From IMG/VR virus record IMGVR_UViG_3300011412_000009, positions 1 to 51,045 of that record: 51,045 nucleotides of DNA; one strand, 5' to 3'. The translations under genes were made by a program, and so were the position numbers. The notes under the pieces were generated by a model. The model saw only the letters and a list, made by a program, of their open reading frames with translations. It was not told where the DNA came from and did no database searches. Each line of letters begins with the position of its first letter. Position 1 is the stretch's first letter. Below are positions 51 to 41,196 of this stretch, piece after piece. The DNA is from a virus (taxonomy: Duplodnaviria > Caudoviricetes).

Positions 51-1289
51 ATGCCAAAAACATTAGGAAAAGTGGGGAAGGCCCACCGTGCAGACTCAGG
101 CGTCTCGCACATCAAGGACTTGGTGCCTGATCCTGAGAATCGGCGGGCGCATAACCCCCGGAATCTCGGGATGGTGTCGGATGCGCTGCGGGAAGTTGGG
201 GCTGCGCGGTCGATTGTCATCGACGAGGACAACGTGATCCTGGCTGGCAATGGGGTGACTGAGGCGGCGGCTGAGGCTGGGATTACCCGTGTGCGGGTCA
301 TCGAGGCGTCCGGGGATGAGTTGATTGCGGTGCGGCGGTCTGGCCTGACGCCGGCCCAGAAGCGGGCGCTGGCGATTTACGACAACCGGACGGGGGAGTT
401 GGCGACGTGGGATTTCGACCAGTTGAAGGCGGATGTGGATGCTGGGCTGAGCCTCCAGCCGTTCTGGACCGAGGAGGAGACGGCCGCGCTACTGGCGAAG
501 CACTTTCCACCGGCCGAAGGTTTGACCGACCCGGATGCCGTGCCAGACGAGCGGGCGACCGACATCGTGCCTGGGGATCTGTTCGAGTTAGGTCGGCACC
601 GGCTGATCTGCGGCGACTCCACAGACGCGCTGGTGGTGGACAAGGTGCTGGCTGGCGTGAAGCCGCACCTGATGGTGACGGACCCGCCGTATGGTGTGAA
701 TTACGACCCAGCCAAAGCTAGAGCACCCAGTAAGGACTCGGCGCGAGGCAAGGTGTTGAACGACGACCGATCCGACTGGCGTGAGGCATGGTCACTGTTC
801 ACAGGATCGGTTGCCTACATCTGGCACGCCATGCGAACGAGCGGCACGGTGTTCTCAAGCCTAGAGGATTGCGGTTTTGAGGTCCGTTCAGAGATCGTGT
901 GGGATAAGGGTCGGCTAGTGATGAGCCGAGGCCACTACCATCCTCAGCACGAAAGTTGTTGGTATGCCGTGCGCGATACGGCCAGCTGGTCAGGCGGTAC
1001 GAAACAGTCGACGGTTTGGCTGATTCATCACCAGAAGTCGGAAACAGGCCACGGCGCCCAGAAGCCGGTCGAGTGCATGCGTCGGCCCATCGAAAACAAC
1101 TCCAGCCACGGCCAAGCCGTCTACGAGCCATTCAGTGGCAGCGGGACCACCATCATCGCGGCCGAGCAAACTGGCCGAGCCTGCTACGCCATCGAACTAA
1201 ACCCGACCTACGTGCAGGTCGCCATTGATCGCTGGGAAGCCTTCACCGGCCAGAAGGCCGTCAAAGTTGGAGAGGCGGTCAGCGTATGA
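51..1289 (+). CDS. ParB-like N-terminal domain fused to an N6-adenine/N4-cytosine DNA methyltransferase (beta-class motif order)
   Basis: N-terminal NPR..N, IVIDEDNVILAGNG and AIYDNRT motifs; catalytic DPPY; H.AQKPV; SAM-binding EPFSGSGTT. Such genes are commonly found just before terS. Confidence 0.9.
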   Translation: MPKTLGKVGKAHRADSGVSHIKDLVPDPENRRAHNPRNLGMVSDALREVGAARSIVIDEDNVILAGNGVTEAAAEAGITRVRVIEASGDELIAVRRSGLTPAQKRALAIYDNRTGELATWDFDQLKADVDAGLSLQPFWTEEETAALLAKHFPPAEGLTDPDAVPDERATDIVPGDLFELGRHRLICGDSTDALVVDKVLAGVKPHLMVTDPPYGVNYDPAKARAPSKDSARGKVLNDDRSDWREAWSLFTGSVAYIWHAMRTSGTVFSSLEDCGFEVRSEIVWDKGRLVMSRGHYHPQHESCWYAVRDTASWSGGTKQSTVWLIHHQKSETGHGAQKPVECMRRPIENNSSHGQAVYEPFSGSGTTIIAAEQTGRACYAIELNPTYVQVAIDRWEAFTGQKAVKVGEAVSV

Positions 1290-1398: not shown

Positions 1399-1887
1399 AT
1401 GAGAGGCCGCAAGCCGCAGCCGACGGAGCTAAAAAAGCTGCAGGGCAACCCAGGTAAGCGCCCGCTCAACACCCGCGAGCCGGTCATGCCGGAAGCGGAC
1501 CCCTCCTTCGATGCGCCTCCGGTGGAACTAGCGTCTGACCTGGTTGCGGCTGGGGAGTGGCAGCGGTTAGCGCCTATTCTGCGGAAGTCCAAGACGGTGA
1601 CAGAGGCGGATCGTGGGGCGTTGTTATCGCTGTGCCAGCAGTGGAGCCGATACCTTGAGGCCAACAAGAGCGTGGCGACGGCCGGTATGGTGGTCAGATC
1701 CCCAAGCGGCTACCCGATGCCCAACCCCTACATCGCCATTGCGAATCGGGCGCTGTCGATGTGCGTCAAGCTCTGGGCCGAGTTGGGGTTAACGCCGAGT
1801 TCCCGCAGCCGTGTGACCTCCGTGGGCGATGATTCCGCTGGCGATCCGTTTGCCGAGTTCGACGCCACCCCAGCCCATGTCAACTAA
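1399..1887 (+). CDS. terS: Terminase small subunit, P27 family
   Basis: MRGRKPQPTELKKLQGNPGKRPLN start, NPYIAI and ELGLTPSSRSRV motifs; directly upstream of terL. Confidence 0.93.
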   Translation: MRGRKPQPTELKKLQGNPGKRPLNTREPVMPEADPSFDAPPVELASDLVAAGEWQRLAPILRKSKTVTEADRGALLSLCQQWSRYLEANKSVATAGMVVRSPSGYPMPNPYIAIANRALSMCVKLWAELGLTPSSRSRVTSVGDDSAGDPFAEFDATPAHVN

Positions 1888-3571
1888 CCCCGTCGATGAC
1901 TATGCGCTGGCTGTCGTCAAGGGGCACATTCCTGCCGGCAAGTATCATCGGCTGGCCTGCACGCGGCACCTGAAGGACACGCAACGCGAAGGCACGCCTG
2001 GATTTCCGTATCGATTTGACCTGACTCGAGCGAATCGCCTGTTCCGGTTTGCCGAGCAACTCCGGCACTATAAGGGCGAGTGGGCTGGACGGAATATCAA
2101 GCTCGAGCCGTGGCAACTCTTCATCCTCGGCAGCGTGATTGGCTGGGTGCATCAAGACACTGGCCTGCGACGGTATCGCACGGCCTTCCAACAGATCCCT
2201 CGCAAGAACGGAAAGAGCCTCATCGCGGCCATCGTCCTGCTCTACCTGACGTTCTTTGACGGGGAGCAGGGCGCAGAAGGCTATTCGATTGCCACCAAGC
2301 GTGACCAGGCCAAGATCGTGTTCGGTGACGCCAAGAAGATGGTGCAGTCCAGCGGGTTGAAGACCCGGATCAAGATCCTCGTCTCCAACCTACACCGGGA
2401 CGATTCAGCGTCTAAACTGATGCCCCTTGGGGCCGACCATGACGGCACAGACGGCCTGAACCCTTCGGTGGTCGTAGTCGATGAGATGCACGCGATGAAG
2501 GATCGCGGCATGTTGGACGTGATGGAGACGGCGACTGGTGCCAGACGGCAGCCGCTCATCTATGAAATCACGACCTTTGGAGACGATCCAGTCTCGCCGT
2601 GGGGCGACCAGAACGATTACGCCAACAAGATCCTTGAGGGCGTGCTAGTCGATGAGTCGTTCTTCGTGTTCACGGCCCACGCCGATCTCGAGGATGACTG
2701 GACGAAGCCAGAGACGGCACGGAAGGCCAACCCGAACTACGGTATCTCCGTCAACCCAGAGGACTTGGCCGCGAAGGTGCTGAAGGCGCAGGGGATTCCG
2801 AGTGCTTCGGCCACCTATAAACAGAAGCACCTGAATCTGCTCGTGAACGCCTCTGCGCCCTGCCTGTCTGTGGACGGCTGGCGCCGTGGCCAGTCGCATC
2901 TGAGCCGGGAGGAGTTCGCGGAGTCGCTTGAGCATGAGCCGTGTTTTGTCGGCATTGACCTCGCCTCCAAGATCGACTTGTGTGCGCTTTCCTTAGTGTT
3001 TCCTCCGTCACCACTTCGGTCGAAGTGGGCCGTGATTCAGCACATCTGGACCCCAGAAGACACGATGGTCGAGCGTGCCCACCGGGATAGAGCTCCGTAT
3101 GGCATCTGGCATGACCAGGGCTGGCTGGAGACAACTCCCGGCACCCGCATCGACCACGAGGTTATCCGAGAGACGCTGGTAGCAGCACGGGAACGCTACG
3201 ACCTAGAGATGATTGGCTTCGACCCGTGGCACGCGGACAAATTGATCGAGGAATTGATCAAAGTGGACGGCTTCCCTGAAGCGCAAGTGGTGGCGGTGCC
3301 GCAGACCTTTGCCGGCATGTCCTCGGCCTGCCTCCGGGTGCAGGCGGATATTCTCGCTGGGGAAGTCGATGCCGGTGGCTGTCCGGTGACGGCGTGGGCC
3401 GTGAGTAATTGCGTGGACCAGCGGGACGGTAAGGACAATATCCAGTTTATCAAGAAAAAGTCGAGGGGCCGGATTGACCCGGTCGTGTCGCTGTCGATTG
3501 GCGTGGCGCTCTGGCTGAAACGGCCAGAAGCGGTGGCCCCAGCCTTCCAAGTCATGGTGTTTGGCCGATGA
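1877..3571 (+). CDS. terL: Terminase large subunit
   Basis: Walker A PRKNGKS, Walker B VVVDEMH, nuclease GIDLASKIDL, FDPW and C-terminal RIDPVV. ATG at 1877 overlaps the end of terS. Confidence 0.96.
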   Translation: MSTNPVDDYALAVVKGHIPAGKYHRLACTRHLKDTQREGTPGFPYRFDLTRANRLFRFAEQLRHYKGEWAGRNIKLEPWQLFILGSVIGWVHQDTGLRRYRTAFQQIPRKNGKSLIAAIVLLYLTFFDGEQGAEGYSIATKRDQAKIVFGDAKKMVQSSGLKTRIKILVSNLHRDDSASKLMPLGADHDGTDGLNPSVVVVDEMHAMKDRGMLDVMETATGARRQPLIYEITTFGDDPVSPWGDQNDYANKILEGVLVDESFFVFTAHADLEDDWTKPETARKANPNYGISVNPEDLAAKVLKAQGIPSASATYKQKHLNLLVNASAPCLSVDGWRRGQSHLSREEFAESLEHEPCFVGIDLASKIDLCALSLVFPPSPLRSKWAVIQHIWTPEDTMVERAHRDRAPYGIWHDQGWLETTPGTRIDHEVIRETLVAARERYDLEMIGFDPWHADKLIEELIKVDGFPEAQVVAVPQTFAGMSSACLRVQADILAGEVDAGGCPVTAWAVSNCVDQRDGKDNIQFIKKKSRGRIDPVVSLSIGVALWLKRPEAVAPAFQVMVFGR

Positions 3572-3777
3572 GTTTACTCAAGCGTGCCGTGGACTGTCGG
3601 CCAGTCGGCCGTCCACGAAGCCTGACGCAGAAGTCCACCGTTTGCACCTGGGTTGAGAACACCACGCATGATCGGCTGATTCAAGTGGCGAACCAGCGCG
3701 GGATGTCAGTTTCGGAATACGTGCGGCGTGTGGTGGTCTTTGCTATCAAGGACGAGAGTTCAGGGAAGCCCACTTGA
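3568..3777 (+). CDS. Small ribbon-helix-helix (CopG/Arc-like) DNA-binding protein
   Basis: GRPR followed by a beta segment and HDRLIQVANQRGMSVSEYVRRVV, matching the RHH pattern. ATGA overlap with terL. Confidence 0.65.
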   Translation: MSLLKRAVDCRPVGRPRSLTQKSTVCTWVENTTHDRLIQVANQRGMSVSEYVRRVVVFAIKDESSGKPT

Positions 3778-3873
3778 CAACCGACCGCACACTATAGGAA
3801 AGTAGCGGAACCGTCGCGTGTATTCAGCACACGACGGCTCCTCACCACGTCAGGTCCGAAGGGGGACCAGATC
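3774..3873 (+). promoter_or_regulatory. Probable promoter and structured leader of the Cas7-like cassette
   Basis: Perfect TTGACA at 3774-3779, but the -10 box is poorly defined. Hairpin CCGTCGCGTG/CACACGACGG starting at 3811. Hairpin GGTCC-GAAGGG-GGACC covers the likely RBS. Confidence 0.4.
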
Positions 3874-4671
3874 ATGGCTAAAGCCAAGAGTAACACCTCT
3901 ACCGTTCTCGCTCCGTCCGACACCGTCAGCGACATTCTGAAAGTCAGCACCGGCACGCTGAACTGCTGCGTGCTCGGCACCAGCCCGATCATTCTCAATC
4001 GTCTCAGCGAGAAGGCGAAGCACGAACTGCTGATGCCCCGTGGACGCAAGTCCGTGTCAGAGCGGAGCACGTCGCTGAAGCACGATCCGTTCGCGGAATA
4101 CCGTGCGTCTCCGCACACGCTGCGGTCTGACGACAGCCAGCCGACGTTTCTGGCGGTGCCGGCGACGGCATTCAAGGGGGCGCTTCGCACGGCCGCGCTC
4201 GACATGCCTGGGATGAAGAAGGCGCAGATCGGACGCCTCACGTATATCGAAGGCGATTACGTGAACCTCTACGGCATCCCAAAGTTGTTCATGGCGGCGG
4301 TGCGGTCGGCCGACATGAATCGCACGCCGGACATTCGCACGCGGGCCATCGTGCCGCAGTGGGCCTGCGAGGTGCGGATCACGTTCGTGGAACCGCTCAT
4401 CCGGGCGCAAGCGGTGGCGAATCTGCTTGGTGCGGCAGGCATCACCATCGGCGTGGGTGACGGGCGTCCAGAGAAGGGCGCGATGAACAACGGCCAGTTC
4501 AAGATCGTCTCGAAGGATGACCCGGAGTTTCTGGCCGTCATCAAGTCTGGTGGTCGCAAGGCGCAGATCGAGGCCATTGAGCACCCGACCTGTTACGACG
4601 ACGAATCCACCGAACTGCTGTCATGGTTCACGGGCGAATTGGAGCAGCGGAAACTGAAAGGGGTTGCGTGA
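3874..4671 (+). CDS. Stand-alone Cas7/RAMP-superfamily-like protein, putative RNA-guide-binding backbone
   Basis: First strand VLGTSPIIL; VPATAFKGALRTAA resembles the Cas7/Csm3 IPGSSLKGALR helix; C-terminal glycine-rich loop AGITIGVGDGRPEKG..NGQF. 265 aa. Confidence 0.75.
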   Translation: MAKAKSNTSTVLAPSDTVSDILKVSTGTLNCCVLGTSPIILNRLSEKAKHELLMPRGRKSVSERSTSLKHDPFAEYRASPHTLRSDDSQPTFLAVPATAFKGALRTAALDMPGMKKAQIGRLTYIEGDYVNLYGIPKLFMAAVRSADMNRTPDIRTRAIVPQWACEVRITFVEPLIRAQAVANLLGAAGITIGVGDGRPEKGAMNNGQFKIVSKDDPEFLAVIKSGGRKAQIEAIEHPTCYDDESTELLSWFTGELEQRKLKGVA

Positions 4672-5132
4672 TGAAGCTCACGGAAGCACAGATCGCACGG
4701 CTGCACGGGTTGGCCTCGGAACGTGGCGAACTCCTGCCGAGTCGTGTCGTGGAAGATGCGAAGAGGAAGACCAGTCCACTGCACACGTTGTTTGAGTGGG
4801 ACGTGAAAGCGGCGGCGGCGATCCAGTGGATCGACCGCGCACGGGAGATCATCGGCAGCGTCGTGATTGTTGTCCAGCGGAGCGAATACGTCGTCAAGAC
4901 GCCTGCTTACACGCGAGATCCTGACGCGAAAGGCGAAGGCTATCGCTCGGTGACTGCGCTGCGTGACGATCCGGTGGCTGCGCGTGCGTCGTTGCGTTAC
5001 ACGTTGGAGGTGGCATCGGGCCACCTCCGTCGTGCCTACGACTTGGCGGAACCGCTGGGACTGGCTGGTGAAATCGACAAGATCGTCGAGGACATCATGG
5101 GCGTGCAGCGGAAGATCTCCACGGCTGCATAG
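4671..5132 (+). CDS. Phage protein of unknown function, coupled partner of the Cas7-like gene
   Basis: TGATG stop/start overlap at 4669-4673. Motif LPSRVVEDAK...SPLHTLFEWD..AA...W..RAR.II; helical C-terminus. 153 aa. Confidence 0.75.
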   Translation: MKLTEAQIARLHGLASERGELLPSRVVEDAKRKTSPLHTLFEWDVKAAAAIQWIDRAREIIGSVVIVVQRSEYVVKTPAYTRDPDAKGEGYRSVTALRDDPVAARASLRYTLEVASGHLRRAYDLAEPLGLAGEIDKIVEDIMGVQRKISTAA

Positions 5133-5137
5133 AACAC

Positions 5138-5781
5138 GGCAGGCATGGCGCGGTGCGATCTGGCGAGTTCAGTCAGGGTCCGGCGCGGTCTGGCAAGGTT
5201 AGGAGTGGCGGGGTGCGGTCAGGCACGGCAGGCGAGGTTGGGCTTGGCACGGTCCGCTATGGTCTGGCAGGGCACCGTTAGGCCTGGTATGGCAAGGCAG
5301 GCGAGGCGGTGTCTGGCGAGGCGTGGCCGGGAGCGGACTGGCGTGGTGAAGCCAGGAGAGACACGGCAGGCTAGGCGTCACAGGTCTTGGTGCGGCACGG
5401 TCAGGCTCGGCCCGGCTAGTTGCGGCACGGCAGGACTGGCAAGGACTGGTGCGGTGTGTCGGGGTGAGGCCCGACCCGGCAGGCTAGGTAGGGCAAGGCG
5501 TGTGTCTGAGAGGCACGGCAGGCATGGCGGTGCCAGGACGGGCTTGGTACGGCTCGGCGGGACGAGGTTGGGCAGGCATGGCTGCGCTGGGCATCGTCGG
5601 GCTAGGCTAGGCCGGGTGCGGCTGGCCAAGGCAGGCACGGTGTGGCTTGGTAGTGTTCGGGACGGCCCGATGCGGCTGGATACGGCAGGCCGGGATTGGC
5701 GCGGCACGGCATGACGGGGCGCGGCCCGCTGCGGCAGGCGTGGAAAGGATAGGCGGCGTCTGATATGGCAAGGCGCGGCGT
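5138..5781 (+). ncRNA. Non-coding GGY-NN pentamer array in 11 units, putative guide-RNA array
   Basis: About 120 in-register pentamers, 93 starting with GG by my count. GGCA inserts at 5138, 5227, 5296, 5365, 5429, 5478, 5517, 5571, 5630, 5684 and 5733 (all spacings 5n+4). Starts 5 nt after the partner gene's stop and ends at a terminator. RNA function is inferred. Confidence 0.8.
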
Positions 5782-5814
5782 GGGTCTTCATGGCTCACGC
5801 CGCTTTTGTATTTT
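5775..5814 (+). terminator. Intrinsic terminator closing the array
   Basis: GCGGCGTGGGTC-TTCAT-GGCTCACGCCGC forms a 12-bp stem with two G-U pairs, followed by TTTTGTATTTT. Confidence 0.85.
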
Positions 5815-5867
5815 CCTACTAGAAAACCCACAGATATCGCAAACGCCCTCAGTATGGCATCCGAGCC

Positions 5868-7811
5868 ATGCTCGATCGCGCGTATTCCATTTTAGAAGTT
5901 AAATCGGTCGATGCGGAGAAGCGCACCTTCTCCGGCTGGGCAACCACGCCTAGCCCCGACAGGGTTGGCGATGTCATCGAACCGATGGGCGTCGAGTTCA
6001 AGAACCCATCGCCCCTCCTGCTCTACCACGACACCACGCAGCCTGTCGGCCATGTGACCTTCGGCAAGCCGACGAGCAAGGGCGTGCCGTTCACGGCCAC
6101 CATTCCCAACGTGGTCGAGCCTGGGACGCTGCAGGATCGCGTCAACGAAGCGTGGTTGTCCGTCAAATACGAATTGTTCAAAGCCGTCAGTATCGGCTTT
6201 AAGGCTGTGTCTGGATTTGTCGAGCCGCTGAAGTCTGGCGGGCTCCGATTCCTCAAGACCGAAGTCCTTGAACTCTCGCTCGTGGTCGTGCCGGCGAATG
6301 CCGAGGCCGTGATTACCACGGTGAAGTCGCTGGATGCCGAGCATCTCCCCGCGTCAGGGGTCGAAGCTCTGCCAGTTGTTACTCCATCATCTGCGGGCGT
6401 CTCCGCATCACGCGCAAAAGCGCAGACCCCAAAGAAAATGAAATCTTACGCTGACCGTATCGCCGATTGCGAAGCCAACCTGCTGACCAAGACCTCCGAC
6501 CGTGAAGCCATCCAGGCCAAGGTGAGCGAGGAAGGGCGCACGAAAGACCCGCAGGAGCGGGAAACCTTCGACAGCCTCGGGCGAGACATCGCGGGCCTCG
6601 AAGCCGAGATCGCGGACCTGAAGGAACTGCAGTCCATGCAGGCCAAGGCCGCCGTGCCCGTGTCCGGCACCGACCCGAAGAAGGCGTCCGACGCCCGTGG
6701 CGGCACCAACGTCATCCAGGTCACGTCCAACCTACCCAAGGGCACCGGCTTTACCCGCTACGTCATGGCGCTCGCGGCCAGCCGTGGCAACCGGGGTGAG
6801 GCGCTCCAGTTTGCCAAGCGGTGGGAGCGTGATTCACCGGAAGTCGTGCAAGTCCTGAAGGCGGCAGTGGATGCCGGCACCACGACCGATGCAACGTGGG
6901 CCGCGCCCCTGGTCGTCTACAACAACCTGGCGAGCGAGTTTATCGAGCTGCTGCGACCGGCCACGATCATCGGGAAGATCTCGGGCTTCCGGCGTGTGCC
7001 GTTCAATGTCTCGATGCCGCGCCAGACGGCCGGCTCGACGGTGGGCTGGGTCGGACAGGCCAAGCCGAAGCCGGTCGGAGAACTGGCGTTCGACACCGTG
7101 TCGCTCGGCATGGCGAAGGCCGCCGGCATCATCGTGATTGCCGAGGAACTGGCCCGCTCGAGTGACCCCTCGGCCGAGATGGTCATCAGCACCGACCTCC
7201 GCAACGCGATCGCGGAGTTCCTCGACGCGCAGTTCATCGACCCAGCCGTGGCGGCCGTGGCGAACGTGTCGCCGGCCGCTGTCACCAACGGCGCCTCCGT
7301 CATCGACTCGACGGGCACCACGGCTGCGGCCTTCCGCACGGACTTCGCGGCGGCCCTGGCCGTCTGGTCAGCGGCAGACCTGTCGATCTCCGGTGGTGTG
7401 GTCGTGATGACTGAGACGCAGGCGATGCGCCTCGGCATGATCGTCAATGCGTTCGGCCAGCCGGAGTTCCCTGGTATCGGCGCGGGTGGCGGGAGCATCT
7501 TCGGGATGCCGGTCGTGACCTCGGAGAACATCCCGGCCGAAGGCGGATCGCCGGCCGGCAACCGCATCATCCTGCTCAAGCCGGGTGAGATCTTCATGGC
7601 GGACAACGGCGGGATCGTGGTGGATGTGAGCCGTGAGGCGAGCGTCCAGATGAACACCGCGCCGGATGACCCGGCCACGGCCAGCACGGTGCATGTGTCG
7701 TTCTGGCAGAACAACCTCGTCGGCATTCGCGCCGAACGGTTCATCAACTGGCTGAAGCGGCGTAGTGCGGCGGCGGTCATCATCGAAGGCGCCGTCTACA
7801 CGGGCGCGTAG
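5868..7811 (+). CDS. HK97-family prohead protease fused to major capsid protein
   Basis: N-terminal protease motifs (LLYHD, AVSIGF, LELSLVVVPANAEA), coiled-coil scaffold region, capsid C-terminus FWQNNLVGIRAERFINW. Confidence 0.93.
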   Translation: MLDRAYSILEVKSVDAEKRTFSGWATTPSPDRVGDVIEPMGVEFKNPSPLLLYHDTTQPVGHVTFGKPTSKGVPFTATIPNVVEPGTLQDRVNEAWLSVKYELFKAVSIGFKAVSGFVEPLKSGGLRFLKTEVLELSLVVVPANAEAVITTVKSLDAEHLPASGVEALPVVTPSSAGVSASRAKAQTPKKMKSYADRIADCEANLLTKTSDREAIQAKVSEEGRTKDPQERETFDSLGRDIAGLEAEIADLKELQSMQAKAAVPVSGTDPKKASDARGGTNVIQVTSNLPKGTGFTRYVMALAASRGNRGEALQFAKRWERDSPEVVQVLKAAVDAGTTTDATWAAPLVVYNNLASEFIELLRPATIIGKISGFRRVPFNVSMPRQTAGSTVGWVGQAKPKPVGELAFDTVSLGMAKAAGIIVIAEELARSSDPSAEMVISTDLRNAIAEFLDAQFIDPAVAAVANVSPAAVTNGASVIDSTGTTAAAFRTDFAAALAVWSAADLSISGGVVVMTETQAMRLGMIVNAFGQPEFPGIGAGGGSIFGMPVVTSENIPAEGGSPAGNRIILLKPGEIFMADNGGIVVDVSREASVQMNTAPDDPATASTVHVSFWQNNLVGIRAERFINWLKRRSAAAVIIEGAVYTGA

Positions 7812-7819
7812 TCGTGACC

Positions 7820-7850
7820 GAGGGCGCTGCGGGTATACCGTGGCGCCCTC
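7820..7850 (+). terminator. Stem-loop after the capsid gene (weak terminator or mRNA stabiliser)
   Basis: GAGGGCGCTGCGG-GTATA-CCGTGGCGCCCTC, 13-bp stem; poor U-tract. Confidence 0.5.
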
Positions 7851-7861
7851 ACTTAACCGCC

Positions 7862-8155
7862 ATGCTACTCCTGCATCTCTGGCTGTTGCTGGCGCTCTTA
7901 TTGGTAGTGCTTTCCCAAGGACGACGCATCATGGCAACCGCCGCAGAAATCAAGGCGCTCGTAGTGGAAGTGAAGGCCATCGCGGCCGAAGTGGCTGGCG
8001 ACCTCGACGAAGTCATCGGCAAGCTCGAGGGCGGGCTGTCGGCCGAGGAAGCGGCGGCTGTAGCCACCGACCTGTCTGAACTGCGCGACCAGTTGCGCGG
8101 CGTGGCCGACAAGGTGCCGGAGCCGGTCGAGCCGCCTGTCGAACCTCCCGTCTAG
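7862..8155 (+). CDS. Hypothetical coiled-coil protein with possible N-terminal hydrophobic segment (alternative start 7931)
   Basis: MLLLHLWLLLALLLVVL followed by an acidic amphipathic helix and a PEPVEPPV tail. Confidence 0.55.
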   Translation: MLLLHLWLLLALLLVVLSQGRRIMATAAEIKALVVEVKAIAAEVAGDLDEVIGKLEGGLSAEEAAAVATDLSELRDQLRGVADKVPEPVEPPVEPPV

Positions 8156-8344
8156 GTGGCCGCCGTGGTGGCGCTGATTGCCAAGGCGACCTTCCCCTAC
8201 AACGGGCTGGCGCTCACTCCTGGCGACCTGTTTGAGGCCGTGTCCGAGCGGGACGCGGAAACCCTCCGTCTGCTCGACAAGGCCGAGGACGCCCCGAAGC
8301 CCAAGCGCCGGTATCAGCGTCGTGATCTGGTGTCGGAGCCGTGA
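8156..8344 (+). CDS. Small head-region protein
   Basis: Fills the gap to the portal with a GTGA overlap; basic KRRYQRRDL C-terminus. Confidence 0.65.
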   Translation: MAAVVALIAKATFPYNGLALTPGDLFEAVSERDAETLRLLDKAEDAPKPKRRYQRRDLVSEP

Positions 8345-9717
8345 ACCTGTTCGGCCTGTCGATCACGCGCACGAAAGCGGCGCCTGTCAACCTCTCTGGG
8401 GTGGACGGGAGCCGCTCGTGGTGGCCGCTGATTCGTGAGAGTTTCACTGGCGCGTGGCAGCAGAACGTCGAAGTCACGGTCACCGATGCGCTGACCTATC
8501 CCACCGCGTTTGCGTGCGTGGTCCGCATCGCCTCGGACATCTCCAAGTTGGCGGTGCTGCTCACGAAACCGACTGAGGACGACATCTGGACCGAGGTCGA
8601 GAACCCGGCGTTCTCCCCTGTCCTTCGGACCCCTAATCACTTCCAGACGCATCTGCAGTTCTACGAATACTGGATGCTGTCGAAACTCACGAGGGGCAAC
8701 ACCTACGTCCTGAAGATCCGTGACAACCGGAGTGTCGTCACGGCCCTCTACGTATTGGACCCTAATCGTGTCCAGCCCCTCGTGGCTCCTAACGGCGACG
8801 TGTTCTACCAACTCAATCGGGATGACCTCTCGCGCACACCGGACGAACTCATCGTGCCTGCGCGGGAGATCATTCACGACCGCTTTAACTGCCTCTACCA
8901 CCCACTGGTCGGGTTGTCACCACTCCATGCGGGCGGGTTGAACGCCATCCAAGGGCTACGGATTCAGACCAACACCGCGAACCTGTTTGCCAACGGCGCG
9001 AACCCAGGTGGCATCCTGACGGCTCCACTCCACATTCCGCAGGAGACAGCCGACCGGATCAAGGCGTATGTGGACGGCAGTTTCCAAGGCGCTGGGGTTG
9101 GCAAGACGCTGGTGCTCGGCGACGGCATGGGCTACACGCCGGTCATGATGAACGCCGTCGATAGCGAGTTGGTCGAGCAGTTGAAGTGGTCCGACGAGAA
9201 GTTGTGCTCGGTCTTCGGCGTGCCGGCCTACATGGTCGGGGTTGGCCCCTACCCGTCCTACAACAACGTGCAGGCGCTCCAGCAGCAGTATCACAGCCAG
9301 TGCTTGCAAGTGCATCTGGAGTCCATTGAGCGGCTGCTGGATGAAGGACTCGGGCTGCTGCCGCTTGGCTTCCGGTCGATGTTTGACCTGAATAGCCTCC
9401 TGCGGATGGACTCGGCCACCATGATGGCGACGATCGCGCAAGGCGTCGGCGCTGGGGTGATGAAGCCCAACGAGGGCCGCAACCAGTTGAACCTCGCTGC
9501 CGTGACTGGTGGCGATACGCCCTATCTGCAGCAGCAGAACTACTCACTAGCGGCACTGGACGCTCGAGACAAAGCCGCACCAGCGCCTTCAGATACGACG
9601 CCTTCCACTCCTGAGCCTGAACCTGAGCCAGAGGATGAACCGGAAGACGAGCCGGTGGACGACAAAGCCATCGGCGAGATGCTCCAGAAAGCACTCGAGG
9701 AGTTACAAGCCGCATGA
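8341..9717 (+). CDS. Portal protein, HK97 family
   Basis: ACVVRIASDISKL, PNHFQT, RGNTY, GLSPL, FGVPAYMVG and MKPNEGR motifs. Confidence 0.95.
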   Translation: MNLFGLSITRTKAAPVNLSGVDGSRSWWPLIRESFTGAWQQNVEVTVTDALTYPTAFACVVRIASDISKLAVLLTKPTEDDIWTEVENPAFSPVLRTPNHFQTHLQFYEYWMLSKLTRGNTYVLKIRDNRSVVTALYVLDPNRVQPLVAPNGDVFYQLNRDDLSRTPDELIVPAREIIHDRFNCLYHPLVGLSPLHAGGLNAIQGLRIQTNTANLFANGANPGGILTAPLHIPQETADRIKAYVDGSFQGAGVGKTLVLGDGMGYTPVMMNAVDSELVEQLKWSDEKLCSVFGVPAYMVGVGPYPSYNNVQALQQQYHSQCLQVHLESIERLLDEGLGLLPLGFRSMFDLNSLLRMDSATMMATIAQGVGAGVMKPNEGRNQLNLAAVTGGDTPYLQQQNYSLAALDARDKAAPAPSDTTPSTPEPEPEPEDEPEDEPVDDKAIGEMLQKALEELQAA

Positions 9718-36983: not shown

Positions 36984-37300
36984 ACCGCATTTTCGTGTTC
37001 TGCAACAACTGCTCCGGTGATGGCGATTGGCACGAGTTCACCGCGTTGTCCGAGGATGGCGTGTTTCTCGCTGGTCATATCTGCTCACATCACGCCTATG
37101 GCCCTCACGATATGGGCGTGATCGAAACCGGCTGGAAGCGTGATATTTACGCACGTCACTTCCCTGACGGGTTCACGGTTGAGATGGTGGATAACCCAAA
37201 GACCGATCAAGACGTGCAAGCCGCCTACGCACGTCACTTGGCCATGACGAAGGACGAGTATCAGGCCAAGATCGCTAGGCTTCAAGAGGTGTCCAAATGA
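36980..37300 (+). CDS. Hypothetical Cys/His-containing protein
   Basis: Overlapping start and stop codons on both sides. Confidence 0.55.
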
Positions 37301-38247
37301 GTCCGTTTACGAAGGTGGGCGACATCGCCCCGGTGGCCCTGACCCGTATCTCCCCTGCGCCACGGCCGATGTTCACCGACGAACAAGTCGAATTGATCAA
37401 GCGGACTATCGCTCCTGGTTGTTCCGACGACGAGTTGGCGTTGTTTATCCAACAGTGCCAGCGCACCGGACTCGACCCTTTTGGCCGGCAGATTTATGCC
37501 GTGAAGCGATGGGACAATCGCGCTGGCCGTGAAGTCATGGCCGTGCAGGTTAGCATTGACGGGTTTCGGTTGGTTGCGGAACGGGCTGGCGACTACGCCG
37601 GTCAGCAAGGTCCCTTCTGGTGTGCCCCTGACGGCCTCTGGCGGGACGTGTGGCTTGATAAAGACCACCCGGCCGCAGCCAAGGTTGGGGTGATGCGCCG
37701 AGGCTTTACAGAGCCGCTGTATGCGGTGGCGCTCTGGACGGAATACGCCCAGAAGAAGAAGGACGGGTCGCTCATCGGCATGTGGACCCGGATGCCGGCG
37801 CTGATGCTGGCGAAGTGTGCGGAGTCCCTCGCCCTGCGGAAAGCCTTCCCCCAGGAACTCAGCGGCCTCTACACGGCCGACGAGATGGCCCAAGCCACGC
37901 CAGACCGTGAGCCGGAGTTGATGGCCGTAAAGGCCACGCCAGCGCCTGAGGATGGCCAGGTGCGCGTGCTCGAGGTTGGGCCTCCCGTGAAGGCGGGGCA
38001 ATTCTTCTTCGCCCCGGTGACGCTGACAGGCGGCGTAGTGGTCCGAGCCAAAGGTCAGGACGCGATCGCGCTGTGCCGGGAGTTGGCTTTCGACCAGTCT
38101 CCGATCGTGGTGGAGACGAAGCCGGTGCCGAAGTCGGACGGTACGCAGTCCGAGCAGATCGTGGAGATCCACCGAGTGAACGCGCTGCCGACCGCACCTG
38201 AGGCACCGCCAGAAGTTGAGCAGGCGCTGGGCGAGATCCCGTTCTGA
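37297..38247 (+). CDS. bet: Single-strand annealing recombinase, Bet/RecT family
   Basis: DDELALF...[26 protein letters not shown] and W..MP..ML.KCAES.ALRKAFP motifs. Confidence 0.92.
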
Positions 38248-40003: not shown

Positions 40004-40405
40004 ATGCTCTTTGTAATTGCGCCACAACAATTCGAGCAGGATTTCCAGCAATTCTGGGCCGTCTATCCCTGCCACAAGGCACGGAAACAGGCGGAGAAGG
40101 CGTGGCAGCAAGTCAGAGCGTCCCAGCACCTCCCGGCCATCCTCGAGGCCATTGAGGCGCAGAAGGCCGAGCGGGCGGCTCCAGGGTGGCATCCCGCGTG
40201 GCCCTACCCTGCGAGTTGGCTCAGAGCCGAGCGGTGGACCGACGACGTGGTCATACCAGTCAGAAAACGGCTGGACGGGCGTACCGACAGCGATCCCTGT
40301 CCTATTTGCGGCTACCCCGACCCCCGGCACCACAGCCGGGTGCAGTGCAACCAGTTGTGGCTCGAGCAGCAGCGTGGCGGTCCTCCTGTGGAGCCAGCGT
40401 CGTGA
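40004..40405 (+). CDS. Protein resembling the C-terminal domain of phage replication initiators
   Basis: F..FWAVYP.HKARKQAEKAW and PYPASWL...RWTD motifs. Confidence 0.6.
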   Translation: MLFVIAPQQFEQDFQQFWAVYPCHKARKQAEKAWQQVRASQHLPAILEAIEAQKAERAAPGWHPAWPYPASWLRAERWTDDVVIPVRKRLDGRTDSDPCPICGYPDPRHHSRVQCNQLWLEQQRGGPPVEPAS

Positions 40406-41196
40406 GCCCATTAGCCATTGATCTGTTTTGTGGGTTGGGTGGTTGGACCGAAGGGTTACTGGCCGAAGGTTATCGGGTGGTCGGCTTTGACATTGAGCAG
40501 CACGTCTACGGCGAGGCTCGGTATCCCGCGCAGCTCGTGCTACAGGACGTGCTGACTATTCATGGCTCGCAGTTCAAGGACGCCGCGCTGATTGTGGCCT
40601 CACCGCCATGCCAGGCATACAGCTACCGAGCGATGCCGTGGAAGCGTGCGAAGGCGTTGCCGCCGCCAGACAACTCGCTATTTGAGGCGTGCTTTCGGAT
40701 TCAGGGTGAAGCGTGTGATGCGGCAGGGAGGCATATCCCGCTCGTGGTGGAGAACGTCAGAGGCGCACAGCCGTGGGTGGGGCGTGCTCGCTGGCACCAC
40801 GGGAGTTTTTATCTCTGGGGCGATATTCCTGCGCTCATGCCGCTAGTGCTGACGCATCCAGCGAAGCGTGTCGGCCATGACTGGAGCCGATTTGCGAAAA
40901 CCGGCGAGGTGTCTCCACACTGGCGACTCAACGGTGAGGATTCCGTGAAAGTGTATCCGCAATTCGCAGTGGCCACGGGTATCAAAGGAGCGGATGGCGG
41001 CTGGTTTAACGACAACAAACGTAAAGGCGGCATGGAGACAGGCCGGCTGAGTCGTTCAGGCAGCAAGAGCAGCGCCCGTAAGGCCGCATCGGCGCACATT
41101 GCGAAGATTCCGTTACCTCTGAGCCGTCACATTGCTCGAGCATGGTATCCAGCAGAAGTCGTAGGTTGGGAGCGGGAAGGGGCACAGGCGCGATGA
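40402..41196 (+). CDS. C5-cytosine DNA methyltransferase-like protein
   Basis: Motif I IDLFCGLGG, motif IV SPPCQ, motif VI ENV. Confidence 0.8.
   Translation: MSPLAIDLFCGLGGWTEGLLAEGYRVVGFDIEQHVYGEARYPAQLVLQDVLTIHGSQFKDAALIVASPPCQAYSYRAMPWKRAKALPPPDNSLFEACFRIQGEACDAAGRHIPLVVENVRGAQPWVGRARWHHGSFYLWGDIPALMPLVLTHPAKRVGHDWSRFAKTGEVSPHWRLNGEDSVKVYPQFAVATGIKGADGGWFNDNKRKGGMETGRLSRSGSKSSARKAASAHIAKIPLPLSRHIARAWYPAEVVGWEREGAQAR

Follow-up and report, generated by a model that had tools for sequence, protein, structure and literature searches.

A likely staggered-array VIPR system in a tailed phage, with one guide matching prohead protease genes of other phages

The 51,045-base virus record IMGVR_UViG_3300011412_000009, the whole of which is referred to here as the window, very probably carries at positions 3874-5813 a tailed-phage Viral Interference Programmable Repeat (VIPR) system, in which a Vipr RAMP protein is combined with an accessory gene of the vap type and with 11 guide RNAs (vrRNAs) in a staggered array. 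This reading is based on homology, protein fold, the anatomy of the array, the co-occurrence of gene and array in relatives, and one target match. VIPR was described in 2026 as a CRISPR-like RNA-guided DNA silencer, and in the available text of the two preprints the Vipr RAMP polymerises on a vrRNA made of GGY/NN pentamers, with one protomer per repeat (bioRxiv 10.64898/2026.04.26.720920; 10.64898/2026.04.26.720927). The NN bases are reported to read double-stranded DNA with every third base skipped, binding silences transcription, and the natural targets are competing phages and satellites, often matched in codon register (10.64898/2026.04.26.720920). The same source distinguishes seven VIPR types and names 'staggered arrays with overlapping vrRNAs' as one architecture, the legend of its fig. 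S18 stating that staggered vrRNAs derive from '1 nt overlapping positions'. A likeness to VIPR had been noted in the initial annotation of the window, and it is borne out, as VIPR is already in print with the same GGY/NN architecture (10.64898/2026.04.26.720920). The kind of system is known, and the picture of what VIPR is remains unchanged by the present locus.

The first gene of the cassette, vipr (3874-4671, plus strand), encodes a 265-aa RAMP (Cas7-like) protein which, by homology and fold, is the putative RNA-binding subunit. No match to this protein was obtained in Pfam or NCBIfam, and in PHROGs it was assigned to the unnamed family phrog_4652 (E 3.7e-12); its relatives are numerous, with 1741 proteins at E <= 1e-3 in 90% clusters and 1829 representatives at 50% identity. 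When the PDB was searched with the single sequence by phmmer the only match was the 'SUSP1 Vipr protein' (36pp_D, E 0.7), and profiles built from 23 close and from 50 diverse relatives found the same entry at E 0.029 and E 7.2e-08, respectively, the runner-up in the second of these searches having an E value of 1.2. The alignment to SUSP1 Vipr spans the thumb to the loop rich in glycine (G-loop). In the SUSP1 protein, contacts to GGY were ascribed by cryo-EM to R138, D177, W178 and R179 (bioRxiv 10.64898/2026.04.26.720927), and three of these four mapped residues are kept here, namely the thumb arginine R138, which aligns with R157, the G-loop aspartate D177, which aligns with D196 (each kept in 48 of the 50 diverse relatives), and the G-loop arginine R179, which aligns with R198 and is kept in 50/50. 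SUSP1 H17 aligns with N42, within a weakly aligned stretch.

The hallmarks of a RAMP protein noted in the initial annotation were confirmed at the level of fold. The AlphaFold (AF2) model of Vipr has a pLDDT of 76.5 and a pTM of 0.75 with a floppy loop at residues 193-203, and it presents a beta-hairpin at 153-173 which bears R155 and R157, together with a G-x-G-D-x-R-P loop at 193-199. Foldseek against the PDB gave 46 matches at E <= 1e-3, the best at 2.7e-05, and the matches listed are all CRISPR backbone RAMPs (Csm3, Cmr4, Cas7-11 or type VII Cas7); similarly, every one of the 50 entries listed by VIA-align is a CRISPR RAMP, with an alignment to Csm3 at Z 9.2 and a root-mean-square deviation of 3.5 A over 155 residues (model residues 24-215). 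Three viral matches at E <= 1e-3 were found in BFVD, one of them named as a RAMP superfamily protein. With Csm3 and Cmr4, which belong to the Cas7 family of type III systems, the protein shares the RRM core, the thumb hairpin and the glycine-rich loop, while sequence identity is 6-14% and the footprint of those proteins is 6 nt as against 5 nt here. Residues from about 216 to 265 form an extra C-terminal helical part which is absent from the 202-aa SUSP1 protein. Among cultured phages the closest relatives of Vipr are about 30% identical and are found in Mycobacterium and Gordonia phages; these are annotated as hypothetical proteins and may be unrecognised Vipr genes.

The staggered vrRNA array occupies about 650 nt downstream of the two genes (5138-5791, plus strand). 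Identity at a lag of 5 nt is 0.47 in the array as compared to 0.311 +/- 0.016 in 1000 shuffles, and the period-5 contrast of 0.58 is matched nowhere else in the 51,045 bases, where it does not exceed 0.24. The array had originally been described as strictly periodic over its length of about 650 nt, and of this description the 5-nt period stands but the strictness does not, as the GGY phase slips by one base (-1) ten times, each time at a 4-nt GGCA step which precedes a GGY. When these slips are corrected for, the array resolves into 11 segments of 8-18 units, amounting to 132 pentamers (5142-5791, plus strand), in which G occupies position 1 in 121 and position 2 in 113, and C or T occupies position 3 in 118, while base use at positions 4 and 5 is near-uniform. 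VIPR arrays are recognised by at least four adjacent YNNGG or GGYNN units on the vipr strand, and the 132 pentamers found here lie on that strand.

The 11 segments, all on the plus strand, correspond to the guides vr1 (5142-5231, 18 units), vr2 (5231-5300, 14 units), vr3 (5300-5369, 13 variable units plus a constant GGCAG), vr4 (5369-5433, 13 units), vr5 (5433-5482, 10 units), vr6 (5482-5521, 8 units), vr7 (5521-5575, 11 units), vr8 (5575-5634, 12 units), vr9 (5634-5688, 11 units), vr10 (5688-5737, 10 units) and vr11 (5737-5791, about 11 units), the 3' end of the last being uncertain because it runs into the stem of the terminator. GGCAG is the constant terminal unit of 10 of the 11 guides, and its last G doubles as the first G of the next guide, such that guides abut at the GGCA steps with no intervening tail; no Rfam family was found inside the array. 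The array fits the staggered form and not the tailed form of type II. That the array might instead be protein-coding, given that a 189-aa open reading frame (ORF; 5145-5714, plus strand) is listed across it, is barely credible: the period is 5 and not 3 (identity is only 0.24 at a lag of 3, as compared to 0.47 at a lag of 5), the register shifts by one base at ten places, and open frames are to be expected in G-rich repeats that lack stop codons. The 189-aa frame is an artefact of this kind.

Evidence that the pentamers spell out guides came from target searches, for which the NN pairs of each guide were turned into patterns with 0-3 skipped bases. Among 110 related loci, vr3 matched one (L044) at 25/28 read bases with a 1-nt skip and at no more than 19/28 with skips of 0, 2 or 3. 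The site is located inside a Peptidase_S78 gene (E 9.6e-50), and every skipped base falls on a wobble position. Over the 13 variable units the match amounts to 24/26, a score reached by none of 300 shuffles of the unit order of vr3, the best of which attained 22/26. The ten-unit (20-base) core of vr3 was found exactly in 32 viral contigs, and these hits are not background because six comparable patterns of other guides gave no hit. All 32 core sites lie in frame within ORFs of 106-318 aa and encode DVRALVDHDT (25 sites), DVRALVDHET (6) or EVRALVEHDT (1), membership of the prohead protease family having been confirmed by Pfam for two of the 32 ORFs only. In contigs G001 and G002, which carry an identical site, all 26 read bases of the variable units are matched, as against at most 18/26 with other skips. 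G002 is a fragment of an ordinary tailed phage, in which protease, HK97-type capsid and tape-measure genes are present. The limits of the match coincide with two GGCA steps: it opens with the unit that directly follows one step and closes with the unit just ahead of the constant one, and the flanking codons are mismatched. The homologous protease site of the phage itself does not match vr3 (11/26). We conclude from these sequences that vr3 is probably directed against the codons for a conserved motif, with a His, in the prohead protease of other phages, and synonymous changes in the target would not afford escape because the skipped base is the wobble position. The proposal made in the initial annotation that rival phages are targeted is thus upheld for vr3, which obeys the published 1-nt-skip rule on protease genes of rival phages.

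The linkage of gene and array was established across the same 110 loci (30 from genomes and 80 from viral contigs). In 98/110 a period-5 array is present no farther from vipr than 2 kb on the downstream or 1.3 kb on the upstream side, in agreement with the check that had been named in advance, that homologues should have such an array beside them; the array is downstream in 95 loci and upstream in 14. Among the 12 loci that lack one, the sequence extends less than 700 nt downstream in 6, and in one of the 12 an array is located 1.7 kb upstream, the only one detected in 361 kb of more distant flank. The GGCA step is a family feature: in the arrays of 77 related loci there are 394 steps of four bases, and 272 of these are GGCA; distances from step to step peak at 44, 49, 54, 59, 64 and 69 nt. 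It may be argued that the tract acts as DNA, be it a G-quadruplex-prone tract, a packaging signal or a set of binding sites for a ribbon-helix-helix (RHH) protein, with the Cas7-like gene unrelated to it. GG dinucleotides every 5 nt could indeed form two-tetrad G-quadruplexes, and the array is located in the packaging and head region beside terL. Nonetheless this explanation is highly improbable: the array accompanies vipr in 98/110 loci whatever the neighbours, the vipr strand is the G-rich one in 130 of 131 arrays, an RHH gene is present in only 12/110 loci, and a DNA element would not spell 13 in-frame protease codons of another phage in a gapped code. The one array of the 131 that is G-rich on the opposite strand (L021:3597-3996) is located just upstream of vipr. 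Close relatives mix GAC or GAT (GAY) units with GGY in one array (L040:2700-3140, L033:3416-4068), and arrays that contain GAY escape a detector based on GG.

The second gene of the cassette (4671-5132, plus strand) encodes a vap-like accessory protein of 153 aa and was correctly described at the outset as coupled to the first, as its start lies on the last base of the vipr stop codon, with a one-base overlap. A homologue was found by tblastn in 84/110 related loci, nearly always immediately 3' of vipr. The protein matches phrog_15946 (E 1.8e-10) and has no match in Pfam or NCBIfam. Its AF2 model (pLDDT 92.4) consists of an N-terminal helical domain with a small sheet, followed by a helical hairpin. 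Profile searches of the PDB with this protein gave coiled-coil noise only, Foldseek gave nothing at E <= 1e-3, a wide VIA-align search matched only the C-terminal helical hairpin (Z about 8), and the Atlas search returned unnamed viral clusters only. Nuclease or helicase vaps are reported for some VIPR types (10.64898/2026.04.26.720920), and it could be that the present system destroys its targets or acts beyond binding, as has been proposed for the nuclease-bearing types III-V, given that this vap is without an informative fold match. We consider this unlikely, as the sequence has no Pfam or NCBIfam match, the model has no nuclease-like match, and the locus is located in a phage and not in a host defence island.

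A number of observations weigh against the assignment of the cassette as a VIPR system and must be set beside the above. Sequence homology to SUSP1 Vipr is limited to about 50 residues, the remainder of the protein resting on fold, and SUSP1 W178, which stacks on the second G, aligns with a glycine (G197). Only 92 of the 132 units are strict GGY, leaving 40/132 that are not. No target was identified for the ten other guides, and only vr3 beats its shuffles in the local data. The vap protein has no recognisable DNA-binding or other fold in the structure searches. The vrRNAs of type II end in an invariant structured 3' tail of about 40 nt, whereas the guides here have none, and the staggered architecture is not among the forms that the available text of the VIPR preprint gives as confirmed by small-RNA sequencing; the hammerhead and single-guide architectures were so confirmed, and the staggered form is therefore left unconfirmed (10.64898/2026.04.26.720920). 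Lastly, no plus-strand promoter was called by a sigma-70 scan at the TTGACA hexamer (3773-3778, plus strand) upstream of vipr, the hexamer itself being present as initially annotated.

The glycine at position 197, the units that are not GGY and the guides without a target could also be explained by a VIPR locus that is decaying or idle, in which guides have drifted, the G-loop tryptophan is lost and silencing is gone. This is distinctly unlikely in view of the evidence to the contrary. Both ORFs are intact and overlap by one base. Among the 50 diverse relatives, 20 have W at position 197, 11 have G and 6 have F, and glycine is also found there in 7/23 close relatives; because the family varies at this position, G197 may be tolerated in place of the stacking tryptophan. 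GAY units are used by relatives as well, and the non-GGY units inside vr3 remain on the matched target codons, where 26/26 bases are matched. As regards the 10 of 11 guides without a target in the data searched, missing targets are to be expected because the searches used exact seeds on incomplete collections. Exact 20-base patterns with a 1-nt skip gave 0 hits in viral contigs for vr1 (3' part), vr2, vr4, vr7 and vr9, as did the exact 11-unit pattern of vr11, and such zero-hit searches are weak negative evidence because exact seeds miss any mismatched target. In five whole contigs bearing vr3 sites no match above chance was found for the other guides, and no self-target was found in the window, where the best guide score was 17/22 and skips of 0, 2 and 3 performed similarly. 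A candidate site for vr11 on the Ser-motif region of the protease-capsid gene (17/22 in frame, in the window and in L033) was rejected because shuffled guides reach that score in 26/100 trials. In metagenome contigs a 9-unit seed of vr11 gave 11 hits, 7 of them interrupted in frame by a stop codon on the strand of the pattern. At one of the 11 sites, L156:1428-1459 (minus strand) on a 1.6-kb metagenome contig, 22/22 read bases are matched across the start-codon region of an 80-aa ORF lying ahead of a 347-aa transposase-like ORF; as 11 seeds would yield one extension of this kind by chance with a probability of about 0.04, the site is regarded as no more than a lead.

Compared to what is available of the published descriptions, the locus shares with staggered-array VIPR (10.64898/2026.04.26.720920) the Vipr RAMP gene, the downstream accessory gene, the GGY-NN guides and the viral setting, guides which abut with a one-base overlap and without spacer or tail, and 1-nt-skip target matches in codon register, and, judged from text and figure legend, no defining difference from the locus is apparent. 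With type II VIPR, represented by Escherichia phage SUSP1 and a Pseudomonas fulva prophage, it has in common the GGY-NN code, and the type II guides, like vr3, read the first two positions of the codons in a competitor's conserved gene (10.64898/2026.10.15.759431). Type II units, however, are about 100 nt long, as against 11 abutting guides in one array here, and as far as described their targets are a satellite recombinase or prophage regulators, as against the prohead protease of a rival phage. Targeting that is proof against synonymous change has already been published for the satellite recombinase (10.64898/2026.10.15.759431), and 99 period-5 VIPR-like clusters are reported to have been recovered from metagenomes (10.64898/2026.10.21.760802). 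As to class 1 CRISPR-Cas systems, no cas1, cas2, cas3, cas5, cas6 or cas8 and no repeat-spacer CRISPR had initially been recognised; in agreement with this no Cas1 match was found in the record by a search that detected Cas1 in 7/14 control genomes, no CRISPR-type direct repeats or repeat-spacer array were found in the window, and other cas genes were unseen, cas2, cas3, cas5, cas6 and cas8 not having been searched singly. TIGR-Tas systems have an 18-nt period and a Nop-domain effector, in contrast to the 5-nt period and RAMP effector of the present locus. Like the locus, TIGR-Tas systems, as named in 10.64898/2026.10.21.760802, consist of phage-associated tandem-repeat guide arrays without CRISPR adaptation genes.

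The model put forward initially, in which each 5-nt unit is bound by one subunit that grips GGY while NN serves for recognition, with repression as the outcome, is essentially that published for VIPR, and it is supported for the present locus by the homology to SUSP1 Vipr and by the one guide that obeys the 1-nt-skip rule. By analogy with SUSP1, the cassette would be transcribed as one unit from upstream of vipr to the terminator at 5775-5813, and Vipr protomers would coat the array RNA, one per pentamer, gripping GGY and exposing NN. Each 4-nt GGCA step would break the 5-nt register, and it is proposed that one guide therefore ends there and the next starts. The ribonucleoprotein would then bind double-stranded DNA, reading it as NN-x-NN-x, and transcription would be blocked with no cutting. 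In the case of vr3 a rival, whether co-infecting or resident, would probably be prevented from maturing its heads. Each of these steps, from transcription and processing to the binding of RNA and silencing, is inferred, as is the part played by vap. A more specific proposal, which we advance tentatively and regard as possible but rather less than an even chance, is that the GGCA step is itself the guide delimiter: the one-base break in register would stop one Vipr filament and start the next, whereby a transcript of about 650 nt would be parcelled into 11 independent guides without a tail, a ribozyme or a Cas6-like enzyme, and possibly without cleavage. Under this proposal the coincidence of the vr3 match with two steps would be the first natural-target evidence for guide boundaries, and the clade would have a weapon aimed at catalytic-motif codons of the capsid protease of a rival, from which escape would be had only by changing the protein motif.

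The locus, in a 51-kb phage, represents a clean and complete example of a staggered array, its two-gene operon being intact and followed by 11 guides and a terminator; in the available accounts this form so far rests on sequence inspection. The natural target of vr3 fixes where guides begin and end, as well as the 1-nt-skip rule, in a system other than those studied in Escherichia and Pseudomonas, and it gives a first hint, which suggests that a large clade (1829 representatives at 50% identity) targets the head-maturation protease of competing phages. The compactness of the cassette is of use for the study of how guides that lack a tail are defined.

The vipr gene is preceded by a structured 5' leader (3806-3873, plus strand) consisting of a first hairpin, a short conserved linker and a second hairpin. 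In an RNAalifold analysis of 11 loci the first hairpin, at about 3807-3841, has 12 pairs with compensatory changes in 9, and the second, at 3853-3868, has 5 pairs with compensatory changes in all 5; the ribosome-binding site is located inside the second. These hairpins may exert translational control of vipr, and no mention of them was found in the available parts of the VIPR preprints. An Rfam scan gave one weak match, to RF00043 (3806-3881), which is under the gathering score. At the other end the cassette is closed by an intrinsic terminator (5775-5813, plus strand), as initially annotated, with a stem at 5775-5803 of 12 pairs, 9 of them G-C, and a 5-nt loop, after which there is a T-run.

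Upstream of the leader is a 69-aa RHH-like ORF (3568-3777, plus strand) which overlaps the terL stop. It had been annotated as an RHH gene, and while the ORF is present as described its RHH matches are weak and under the curated cut-offs (Pfam NikA-like E 3.4e-4, RHH_7 E 0.026); in PHROGs it matches the repressor family phrog_876 at E 0.013. A homologue was detected by tblastn in 12/110 related loci, in all 12 between terL and vipr, and owing to its presence in so few of the loci the ORF is, by sequence comparison, a local neighbour and not a core VIPR part. The TTGACA hexamer is a possible -35 element. TTGAC is present upstream of vipr in 3/13 related loci, with looser TTGACA-like hexamers discerned by eye in others, and a box located 12-18 nt 3' of the hexamer (window 3773-3811) is conserved in relatives. 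The spacing of hexamer and box in the window does not fit a canonical sigma-70 promoter, and the two could represent a promoter particular to the phage, or else an operator at which the small RHH-like protein acts.

The record has an estimated completeness of 100, its assembly was confirmed by contigs from DNA sequencing, the three runs listed being DNA runs of freshwater sediment metagenomes of which two may be its source, and all genes checked in the window are on the plus strand. The order from terminase to capsid gene is the 69-aa ORF, a 96-nt leader, the 265-aa ORF, the 153-aa ORF, the array and the terminator, and the VIPR cassette is thus placed between the large terminase and the head genes (1829-9717). 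The genes of this region are the large terminase TerL (1829-3571, plus strand), a fusion of prohead protease and major capsid protein (5868-7811, plus strand), which is 43% identical to its counterpart in Pseudomonas phage PAJU2, and the portal (8341-9717, plus strand), which is located 3' and not 5' of the protease-capsid fusion. TerL was found in 15/110 and the capsid fusion in 14/110 related loci, mostly in the closest phages, in which the order terL, small ORF, vipr, vap, array, capsid gene recurs. A RecT gene is present at 37297-38247 (plus strand). The phage also encodes two DNA methyltransferases, at 51-1289 (plus strand; annotated as a DNA methylase) and at 40186-41196, one of them of the N6/N4 type and one of the C5 type.

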